A stretch of DNA of 64,000 nt, taken from assembly GCA_963790805.1 (NCBI GenBank), contig CAWBPL010000002.1, forward strand, positions 1,148,860-1,212,859, written 5' to 3'. Position 1 is the first letter of the stretch. Each line of letters opens with the position of its first letter. The position numbers and the translations under genes were made by a program. The notes below the pieces were generated by a model. That model worked only from the letters and a program-made list of their open reading frames with translations, made no database searches and was not told where the DNA came from. Positions 37,722 through 39,823 of the stretch are shown in pieces. This DNA is from Candidatus Gottesmanbacteria bacterium (GTDB taxonomy: Bacteria; Patescibacteriota; Microgenomatia; UBA10105; UBA927).

Positions 37722-38810
37722 TTATGTTACTATTTTTTTTATTTGATTGATACGTAAAGCTTCCCGGATTTCCATGGCAACGCGTCTGCCCATCGACAGA
37801 TTTTTCCCATACAGATATCCACCATATGGCGTCGCTGAAATCCCCGGTGAACCAGGCATACGCGGTGACACGTCAACGACAACGATATCTTTCTTTGGCG
37901 GACCGGGAGTGATAATAGATTGCAGTGCAAATGGGCCAATAATACCCGGAGCAAAATGTTTGGAAGCGGCCCGAACAAATGATTCGCCGTAAGAAAATGC
38001 CTGCTCAAGTAACGATTCCAAAACAGTCACAGCAATATGTCCTGCTTCTTCATACGACACTCCAGTAGATGTAAGTAAATCTTCCTGATACGGCGCGGGT
38101 GCACGCAAAAGCCCATCGAGATTCGTTTGTCGTCTCGTATCGGTTCCAATAAGCTCAAGCCGCTTGTGGATTGGAGAATAAAAGAAATTAAAATTTACTT
38201 GAGCACCTAACACATATTCTTCAATAACTGCCGCGTCCAAAGCTTCCTTTGAAATTTTTCCATTCTTTAACATTTCTTCACTTTTCCGTTTAAATTCGGC
38301 TGGCGATGATGCCAGAAAAAAGGCCCGCTCGAACTTCCGCTCTTTTTCAGAAACTTTAATGAGGCACAAGCGATCAATCTCTTTTGGTGAAGAGAAATGT
38401 TTGGGATAACGGATACCTGCATGGTCAAGGAGATTATATTGATTGGGATGGCGTTCCCTTTCTTCAATTTTCAAAAGCTGTTTATTACCAAACATCGGCG
38501 CGAGGAAAGCGGTTTCCATGGCTTCATAATCAAAATGACAATAGGCTTCAAAAGACCGGTTGGGGACGAATATCGCTTTTTTCTTTTTTAAGACAGCCTG
38601 AACGCGCGGCGTTAATATATCTGAAAAATGGGTTAACTCCAGACACTCATCTACACATCCTATTGATCCGTTGGTCGCAAAGTAGTGTTCGTACGTTTTT
38701 TCTCTTCCTTTTTCCGTAATAACCAGCGTTGCAAACCCCTCGTCTTTCGCACCTCGGCATACATCCAGTGCGCTATGACTTCCCAAAACTGCTATCGTCG
38801 ATTTTTGCAT
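37722..38810 (-). CDS. purP: PurP-type (archaeal, ATP-grasp, formate-dependent) FAICAR synthetase paralog 2
   Basis: IAVLGSHSALDVCRGAKDEGF N-terminus and an ATP-grasp C-terminal half. Homologous to the adjacent ORF. Confidence 0.75.
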   Translation of the reverse strand: MQKSTIAVLGSHSALDVCRGAKDEGFATLVITEKGREKTYEHYFATNGSIGCVDECLELTHFSDILTPRVQAVLKKKKAIFVPNRSFEAYCHFDYEAMETAFLAPMFGNKQLLKIEERERHPNQYNLLDHAGIRYPKHFSSPKEIDRLCLIKVSEKERKFERAFFLASSPAEFKRKSEEMLKNGKISKEALDAAVIEEYVLGAQVNFNFFYSPIHKRLELIGTDTRRQTNLDGLLRAPAPYQEDLLTSTGVSYEEAGHIAVTVLESLLEQAFSYGESFVRAASKHFAPGIIGPFALQSIITPGPPKKDIVVVDVSPRMPGSPGISATPYGGYLYGKNLSMGRRVAMEIREALRINQIKKIVT

Positions 38811-38812
38811 AA

Positions 38813-39823
38813 TTACAGTAATATCTCACTCAGTTTTTTCTTTCGTATTGCAATTTTTATCTCACGCGCAATCCTTCGCCCCGTGCTCATCGGTTCATCA
38901 TAGGTTAAATACGTATACGGTGAGCCTTCTGTGAAAAGATTCGTTCCGGCAACTATTCTACAGGAAATTTCCATAGCGTAAAACTTCTGATCAGGAGTAA
39001 TGATGGTTTCCAAACAAAATGGCCCGATAAGCCCACCTCCTCCAATCAATTTTTTGGACGCTTTAACAACCCGTTCACCCATTGCATATACCTCAGGAAG
39101 CAGTGATTCCCGTAAAACCAGAGGAGAATTACCAACAACAACGTAGGTAGGATCAACGTTCATTTCCTTTTGATACGCAAAAGGAATTCTTCCCAATCCA
39201 TCGGCATTTGTTTCATACCGCCTGTCAATGCTCATAAGTTCAACAGTATTGGTAATCGGTGAATAAAAAAAATGTGGATAACACGTTACGCCCACGACAT
39301 ACCGTTGTATGACATAGCGTGAAGAGGGCATTGAACCGATTTTCGCCTCAAAATCAGCTTTATTTGCCGCAAAAAAATATCCGGATCCTCCTGCGGCACC
39401 AAAGGACTTTACAATAACCGGATATTCAATATTTTTAAGCGCATATTCGTCAGGAACACGTATGTCAGCTGCCAAAAGCCATTTCCTCTGCAACCCCCGA
39501 TCTTCTTCCCAATCCAGTACTTTTTTGTTTCCAAAATAAGGTATCGTCAACCGTTTATTTCCCTCTTTTCCTAAATATGCCACAAACGACCCATGCGGAA
39601 TCAAAATACAATTATCTTGTACTAACTGCTTTTCAACTTTTGGAAATTCTGAAAATGTCGAAACGGTAACAATGCGATCAATGAATTGAAACCGGCGGTA
39701 AAATGATGCTTTCTTTTCTTCCGAAACAAGAAGCGTACGAAATCCTTCATCTTTTGCGCCTTTGAGAATCTGTAAAGCGCTATGACTTCCGAGAGTGGCG
39801 ATGGTATATGGTTTGTTTCTCAT
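38813..39823 (-). CDS. purP: PurP-type FAICAR synthetase paralog 1
   Basis: [24 protein letters not shown] is the characteristic PurP (DUF1246/DUF1297) N-terminus. Confidence 0.8.
   Translation of the reverse strand: [336 protein letters not shown]

Follow-up and report, generated by a model that had tools for sequence, protein, structure and literature searches.

The purine operon in a 64,000-nt stretch of the Candidatus Gottesmanbacteria bacterium contig CAWBPL010000002.1 (positions 1,148,860 to 1,212,859, referred to as the window herein) contains two adjacent genes of the PurP family of ATP-grasp proteins, which we call PurP-A and PurP-B, or A and B. On the published diagnostic residues, A is of cluster Ib type, albeit with a loop that lacks the basic residues of the consensus, and B is a cluster II protein, and this strict pairing, together with the gene order and tight spacing, is maintained across approximately 70 genomes. 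Rather than a new kind of system, the pair represents in bacteria an archaeal system that is known but still unsolved. As its function we favour, at slightly better than an even chance, a two-subunit, folate-independent, formate- and ATP-dependent enzyme that formylates 5-aminoimidazole-4-carboxamide ribonucleotide (AICAR) to its formylated form, FAICAR. In genomes that lack PurH or PurO, the A/B complex possibly also closes the ring to inosine monophosphate (IMP). The two genes are:

38813-39823, minus strand: PurP-A, 336 aa, cluster Ib-type PurP (PurP II of Zhang et al.)
37722-38810, minus strand: PurP-B, 362 aa, cluster II-type PurP (PurP III of Zhang et al.)

A and B belong to the PurP family

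The Pfam domains DUF1246 and DUF1297 cover both proteins and are full length in each (A, E = 3e-42 and 3e-68; B, E = 2e-38 and 3e-63). Every NCBIfam model named formate--phosphoribosylaminoimidazolecarboxamide ligase also matches A and B, but with scores under the equivalog cut-offs (385 versus 580 bits for A and 277 versus 556 bits for B); family-level membership therefore holds, while the exact-function name is unwarranted. The three solved PurP proteins match both A and B, with E values from 1e-102 to 1e-24. The closest solved relative of A is Pyrococcus furiosus PF1517 (346 bits; E = 2e-102 in a sequence match to 2R84), with Methanocaldococcus jannaschii PurP (MJ0136) at 296 bits. For B it is M. 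jannaschii PurP (241 bits, ~36% identity), and the Thermococcus kodakarensis protein 2PBZ is a weaker match for both. A and B are themselves only about 33-36% identical.

An AlphaFold2 model of B (pLDDT 85, pTM 0.85) found its best structural match in 2R7M/2R7K (TM 0.77, E = 1e-36), and the next ATP-grasp family, biotin carboxylase, appeared only at E ~1e-10. A first-pass annotation, made from the sequence of the window, had recognised both open reading frames (ORFs) as PurP-family ATP-grasp proteins by their N-termini ([24 protein letters not shown] and IAVLGSHSALDVCRGAKDEGFATL). Both PurP motifs were confirmed, and the Pfam, NCBIfam and solved-structure matches agree with that assignment. 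Reassignment to another ATP-grasp family, which the annotation had named as a potential refutation, did not occur, and is excluded by the Pfam and NCBIfam matches together with the gap between ~1e-36 and ~1e-10 for the B model.

Diagnostic residues point to cluster Ib for A and place B in cluster II

In M. jannaschii numbering, clusters Ia and Ib are diagnosed by Asn258, which contacts the AICAR carboxamide, and by a (K/R)GG(K/R)G loop (Brown et al., PMC3261824). Cluster II proteins always have His258 and a loop that is two residues longer and lacks the glycines, and the formyl contacts His27 and Arg314 are common to both clusters (PMC3261824). We aligned A and B of the window with every PurP ORF of 80 related loci (see below) and the sequences of the three PDB entries, using lists of ATP-contact residues from PMC3261824 and general knowledge of ATP-grasp proteins. 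A has Asn258, His27, Ser94, Arg264, Glu310, Arg314 and Asn320, and its loop, GAAGGSG, has the expected length and glycines. Within this loop the window protein reads AGGSG, without a basic residue, where A-types of the candidate phyla radiation (CPR) mostly read AGGKG and the archaeal proteins (K/R)GG(K/R)G. Position 164 in the lid loop is variable among the CPR A-types (K in 48, S in 6, H in 5, R in 4, and others).

In B, His258 (in the sequence AGH) replaces Asn, and Arg93, Gln230 and Asp310 are found as well, while His27, Ser94 and Arg314 are kept. Its lid loop, SEKERKFERAF versus PGARGG--RGY in MJ0136, is two residues longer and has lost the glycine run. The split between the two types is clean in the Microgenomates loci, with Asn258 in 76/76 A-types and His258 in 79/79 B-types; His27 and Arg314 are invariant in both sets. 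His258 is also present in nearly all other B-like representatives of the wider PurP family, which, clustered at 50% identity, has only 556 representatives in a collection of 1.84 billion proteins. Arg93, Glu96, Arg229, Gln230, Leu264 and Asp310 are invariant among the B-types, which retain His27, Ser94, Lys156, Glu199, Glu200, Ser266 and Arg314. Several B-type features are also seen in archaeal sequences, namely Arg93, Gln230, His258, Asp310 and the ER(A/G)F loop; Leu264 is confined to the CPR clade, with Arg264 kept in archaeal cluster II. From these residues we assign A, whose loop departs from the consensus at its basic positions, to the cluster Ib type and B to cluster II. The tandem paralogs of the first-pass annotation are thus not an unexplained local duplication but the known archaeal cluster Ib/cluster II pair.

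The pair is maintained and co-varies across Microgenomates purine operons

In the window, A and B lie in a purine operon with the order purF-purN-purD-purL-purQ-A-B-purB-purE-purC-purM, all on the minus strand, as read from the ORFs and their Pfam matches. The start codon of B lies 2 nt past the stop codon of A (TAA-tt-ATG). AICAR, the product of PurB, is the presumed substrate of the pair. The operon and the genes discussed below are:

33737-47218, minus strand: whole pur operon, from ORFs and Pfam matches
39829-40629, minus strand: purQ, glutaminase of formylglycinamidine ribonucleotide (FGAM) synthase (Pfam GATase_5, E = 7e-73)
36307-37713, minus strand: purB, adenylosuccinate lyase (Pfam Lyase_1 and ADSL_C)
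44868-45626, minus strand: purN-like gene, folate-type glycinamide ribonucleotide (GAR) formyltransferase (Pfam Formyl_trans_N, 89.6 bits)

Scanning one genome per species and clustering all ORFs, we obtained 80 related loci, every one of Microgenomates type. Across them the order purQ-A-B-purB-purE-purC is conserved, with purQ upstream of A and purB after B in most of them. Both PurP types are carried by the window and 72 loci, and the loci with a single type are accounted for by contig ends or fragmented ORFs. A precedes B on the same strand in the window and 71 loci. The two genes are directly adjacent in 53/73 pairs, many of them overlapping or 0-4 nt apart; in the remaining 20 pairs one or two genes, mostly purA or purH, stand between them. 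Mean pairwise identity across the relatives is 64% for A and 66% for B, and 99/329 and 114/361 columns, respectively, are near-invariant, so that A and B are equally constrained by purifying selection.

We also compared evolutionary distances in a mirror-tree analysis of 41 genomes, in which the shared trend was removed by regression on the mean of five other operon proteins. The distance correlation between A and B was 0.84 (0.58 after regression). Only PurL-PurQ, a known complex, scored higher, at 0.94 (0.74), and all other pairs reached at most 0.75 (0.39). The co-variation of A and B is therefore comparable to that of a known complex.

The close relatives of B come from genomes named Woese-, Curtiss-, Roizman-, Gottesman-, Shapiro-, Davies- or Levyibacteria, or 'Patescibacteria group', which marks the host of the window as a Microgenomates-type CPR bacterium. 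Many of the Microgenomates-type loci (e.g. L005-L007 and L011-L013, from third-party annotation assemblies) are titled 'uncultured Gammaproteobacteria bacterium', and two others are labelled Limnocylindrales (L049) and Parcubacteria (L072). These titles probably reflect mislabelled or mis-binned records.

Both PurP genes are retained with and without PurH

The first-pass annotation had noted that neither PurH nor PurO is encoded in the cluster, and for the 64-kb window this observation held. The Pfam scan covered almost every non-overlapping ORF of 90 aa or more in the window, and six were judged by eye only (RarA-, DinB-, thymidine-kinase- and P-type-ATPase-like proteins, CarB and Upp). None of the scanned ORFs matched MGS/AICARFT_IMPCHas (PurH, PurJ, PurV) or IMP_cyclohyd (PurO). 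A tblastn search with two Microgenomates PurH proteins against the six frames of the window gave a best E value of 0.19, and PurO was sought in the window through Pfam alone. When a Levyi-type PurH (from locus L044) was used as query, the source contig was absent among the best 120 matches in the protein collection. This search missed the Davies-type PurHs; it excludes only a Levyi-type PurH, and we do not count it as evidence that PurH is absent from the source genome.

Like the window, 47 related loci contain the pair with no PurH within 10 kb. Full-length PurH (MGS plus AICARFT_IMPCHas, 301 bits) is encoded in 29/80 related loci. Of these, 24 are not truncated at a contig end, and in every one both A and B are retained, with all the invariant residues of B. 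Since both PurPs are kept beside a complete PurH, B probably does more than replace an absent cyclohydrolase, and the 'missing step' framing of the first-pass annotation does not generalise. The archaeal literature shows a like pattern, in which cluster II is kept alongside PurH2 in Archaeoglobi, which have Ib, II and PurH2, and alongside PurO in T. kodakarensis, which has Ib, II and PurO (PMC3261824).

The operon PurHs fall into two subtypes that are ~40% identical. The Levyi-type lies between A and B (L024, L035, L044, L047, L049 and L067) and the Davies-type directly after B (~22 loci, e.g. L042 11071-12600). Their different sites suggest independent gains into an ancestral operon that already held the PurP pair, or a very old divergence.

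Among the gene families that occur in at least 7/80 loci but are missing from the window, we found no conserved gene that would be a candidate for a new cyclohydrolase. Most of these families were identified by Pfam, as PurA, GuaA, PurH, Prs, PurK, PurN, HAD phosphatase, SOD and Ham1. One further recurrent family, named by eye, is tRNA-synthetase-like, and a deacetylase family occurs in the window as well.

A and B as proposed subunits of one AICAR formylating enzyme

In archaea, the cluster Ib and II pair co-occurs one-to-one in 61 taxa (PMC6486802), cluster Ib is never found without cluster II (PMC6486802, PMC3261824), and in Sulfolobales the Ib/II genes adjoin purB (PMC3261824). The cluster Ia protein of M. 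jannaschii (MJ0136) is the sole PurP with demonstrated FAICAR synthetase activity (PMC6486802). P. furiosus PF1517 (Ib) and PF0421 (II) are each inactive alone, although PF1517 binds ATP and AICAR, and it has been proposed that trimers of Ib and II form a heterohexamer (PMC3261824, PMC6486802). The IMP cyclohydrolase of Crenarchaeota and some Thermococcales has yet to be identified (PMC3261824, PMC6486802, PMC6797443), and extracts of Sulfolobus solfataricus incorporate formate while converting ZMP (AICAR) to IMP (cited in PMC3261824). A literature search by locus tags found no later characterisation of the PurP proteins; the first-pass annotation had regarded the role of the second paralog as open, as does the searchable literature (PMC3261824, PMC6486802).

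In the reading that we favour, the pair would act right after PurB and feed IMP synthesis from AICAR, formate and ATP, with no folate. We infer the catalytic roles from the residues that each protein retains. A would be the ligase, forming formyl phosphate from formate and ATP and then transferring the formyl group to AICAR, because its ATP-grasp core is intact and its glycine-rich lid and the AICAR contacts Asn258 and Arg264 are kept. B would be an obligate, co-evolving partner subunit whose lid is rebuilt and whose carboxamide contact is a His; since His27, Ser94 and Arg314 are kept, it is predicted to bind a 5'-phosphoribosyl nucleotide and a formyl group. That PurH is encoded in 29/80 loci, with A and B together in 24/24 of those left untruncated, argues that B is needed even beside a genuine IMP cyclohydrolase.

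Several points weigh against this two-subunit enzyme. A may differ from a standard ligase, given that its loop in the window lacks basic residues, and the cluster Ia PurP of M. jannaschii works alone, which shows that the fold as such can do without a partner. Joint horizontal transfer, or constraints that paralogs have in common, could also account for the co-variation of A and B without physical contact. Finally, if the source genome lacks every IMP cyclohydrolase, the two-subunit formylating enzyme leaves the agent of ring closure unnamed.

In the main competing explanation, A makes FAICAR and B converts FAICAR to IMP, so that the pair replaces both halves of PurH; B could be a hydrolase-type IMP cyclohydrolase or, by analogy with PurM, an ATP-driven cyclo-ligase. 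We consider this unlikely overall. The window without PurH or PurO and the 47 loci with no nearby PurH are consistent with it, and the archaeal cases of a 'missing IMP cyclohydrolase' (Crenarchaeota and some Thermococcales) are all in organisms with Ib and II (PMC3261824). So are the active-site residues of B: His27 and Arg314, which contact the formyl group, are kept, as is Ser94 at the phosphate, the invariant His that takes the place of Asn258 is a plausible acid/base residue, and the ATP-grasp core (Lys156, Glu199 and Glu200) is retained, with Asp at position 310. Against it stands the full constraint on B in 24/24 untruncated operons that have a complete PurH. Cluster II is likewise kept in Archaeoglobi, with PurH2, and in T. 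kodakarensis, with PurO (PMC3261824), and this retention of B beside PurH, PurH2 or PurO counts against B being only a cyclase. No cluster II activity has been reported, and the negative result for PurH and PurO covers the 64-kb window.

Two further explanations fit the data worse than a ring-closing B. A and B might be independent enzymes, with B, or both, acting on a different ribonucleotide or with a different formyl or acyl donor, as Zhang et al. proposed for the P. furiosus proteins that were found inactive. In line with this, the invariant residues specific to B (Arg93, Gln230, His258, Asp310 and the ER(A/G)F loop) are kept from archaea to CPR, and formate did not yield FAICAR in vitro with either P. 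furiosus protein (cited in PMC6486802, PMC3261824). The one-to-one co-occurrence, fixed position between purQ and purB, and co-variation instead point to a single pathway step, and the S. solfataricus extracts do use formate in going from ZMP to IMP (cited in PMC3261824); we regard independent substrates as improbable. That A and B are redundant isoenzymes, both ordinary FAICAR synthetases, is very improbable: although each is a full-length member of the PurP family in which the formyl-binding residues are present, identity between the two is only 33-36%, each has its own lid loop and active-site residues, which do not vary across 80 genomes and archaea, and neither copy is ever lost.

Origin and spread of the pair in Bacteria

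In a neighbour-joining tree, the CPR B-types fall within cluster II as a single clade (99% bootstrap). Nearest to this clade are a group from Eremiobacterota (Vulcanimicrobiaceae) with its own pair in a pur operon, a lineage with PurH nearby, and archaeal sequences, among them an Aenigmarchaeota protein and a tandem II-I pair from an archaeal genome. The CPR A-types fall together with PF1517 and a Nitrosocosmicus-like representative, at a bootstrap of only 25-50%. The deep nodes are weak (25-55%) and do not resolve the direction or number of transfers.

A second bacterial phylum has a PurP pair in its pur operon. Locus L083 (7332-11363 of a Joint Genome Institute metagenome contig, with relatives in Vulcanimicrobiaceae, Eremiobacterota) has the order purB-purC-purL-purQ-(154 aa)-A-(383 aa)-B-(71 aa). 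The genes for the 154-aa and 383-aa proteins have no Pfam match, and the latter, lying between both PurPs, could be a further component of the pathway.

Neighbouring genes in the window

The description of the locus in the first-pass annotation as a bacterial-style operon with a PurN-type formyltransferase is borne out by the ORFs and Pfam matches. The purN-like gene matches the PurN model TIGR00639 at 97.8 bits, under the cut-off of 150. Called from its first start codon (44868-45626), this ORF overlaps the purD ORF (43607-44938) by 71 nt. An independent assembly of the same organism (L001) showed the same genes in the pur operon, with purD called there from a later start, at 399 aa. The pur operon is preceded by upp and a pyrimidine operon and followed by pyrG, rplS and yraN.

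The CTP synthase gene pyrG (32043-33687, minus strand) is split in the window into ORFs of 378 aa and 174 aa by one extra base near 32556. In L001 it is a single gene of 547 aa, and the two assemblies otherwise differ by 1 mismatch in 21,090 nt. The split is probably an assembly indel and not a pseudogene.

The pyrimidine operon (48045-62190, minus strand) contains carA, carB, pyrB, a pyrC-like gene, pyrF and a pyrE-like gene, and no Pfam match to PyrD (DHO_dh) was found in it. In place of PyrD there are an FrdA/SdhA/NadB-like flavoprotein (55300-56970), an FrdB-like 2Fe-2S protein (54641-55303) and a fumarase/aspartase-like lyase (51977-53287), which may form an alternative dihydroorotate-oxidising module. 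A SLOG-domain gene (51260-51841) also lies within this operon. Between the pyr and pur operons, an ORF of 368 aa (48759-49865, minus strand) has no Pfam match but shows, as judged by eye, a glycine motif like that of S-adenosylmethionine-dependent methyltransferases (LLGVGNGEME).

Relation to known systems and significance

The closest known system is the archaeal Ib and II pair represented by PF1517/PF0421 and by Sulfolobales. It has the same two sub-clusters and diagnostic residues, one copy of each per genome and the same adjacency of A, B and purB, and there too an IMP cyclohydrolase is often not recognisable. Unlike the archaeal pair, the one described here has bacterial hosts (Microgenomates/CPR, and also Eremiobacterota) and lies in an otherwise bacterial operon with a PurN-type enzyme, to which many relatives add PurH; the CPR B-types also differ in having Leu264 where archaeal cluster II has Arg264. 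MJ0136 (2R7K-2R7N) shares the fold and domains of the pair, with all of its listed substrate contacts kept in A and a TM of 0.77 to the B model. In contrast to the pair, it is active alone and has no cluster II partner, and the archaeal PurO was first characterised in M. jannaschii (PMC3261824). PurH occupies the same pathway position and is encoded beside the pair in 29/80 related loci, but it has an unrelated fold, is folate-dependent and is absent from the window. In Escherichia coli, an ATP-grasp formate ligase, PurT, and a folate transformylase, PurN, serve the same GAR formylation step. By analogy only, the PurP pair and PurH coexist likewise in the Davies- and Levyi-type operons. PurT is a single subunit, and to our knowledge it has no paired paralog.

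A 2019 survey of 1,403 genomes stated that PurPs are present in archaeal genomes only (PMC6486802). The PurP pair in CPR corrects this statement; we found no literature linking PurP to CPR, Patescibacteria or Microgenomates, the content of one paper on Patescibacteria and IMP cyclohydrolase (PMC12892359) not being considered. CPR bacteria are usually described as unable to make nucleotides; in some of them the purine operon looks complete and includes a late step that would not need folate.

What cluster II PurP does, and which protein serves many archaea as IMP cyclohydrolase, have been questions since 2008-2011. The PurPs tried so far on the question of the pair came from hyperthermophiles only, and each was inactive alone. 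The bacterial versions come from lineages whose record titles give no signal of thermophily; they offer hundreds of variants and natural operon forms with and without PurH, including one with PurH inserted between A and B, which makes direct tests of cluster II function feasible. Should B prove to be an ATP-grasp-derived, IMP-forming cyclase, with A and B alone taking AICAR to IMP, this would identify the missing cyclohydrolase of Crenarchaeota, Thaumarchaeota and Pyrococcus and explain how PurH-less Microgenomates complete purine synthesis. With the bacterial pair, the linked questions of cluster II and the missing cyclohydrolase become experimentally and comparatively tractable.

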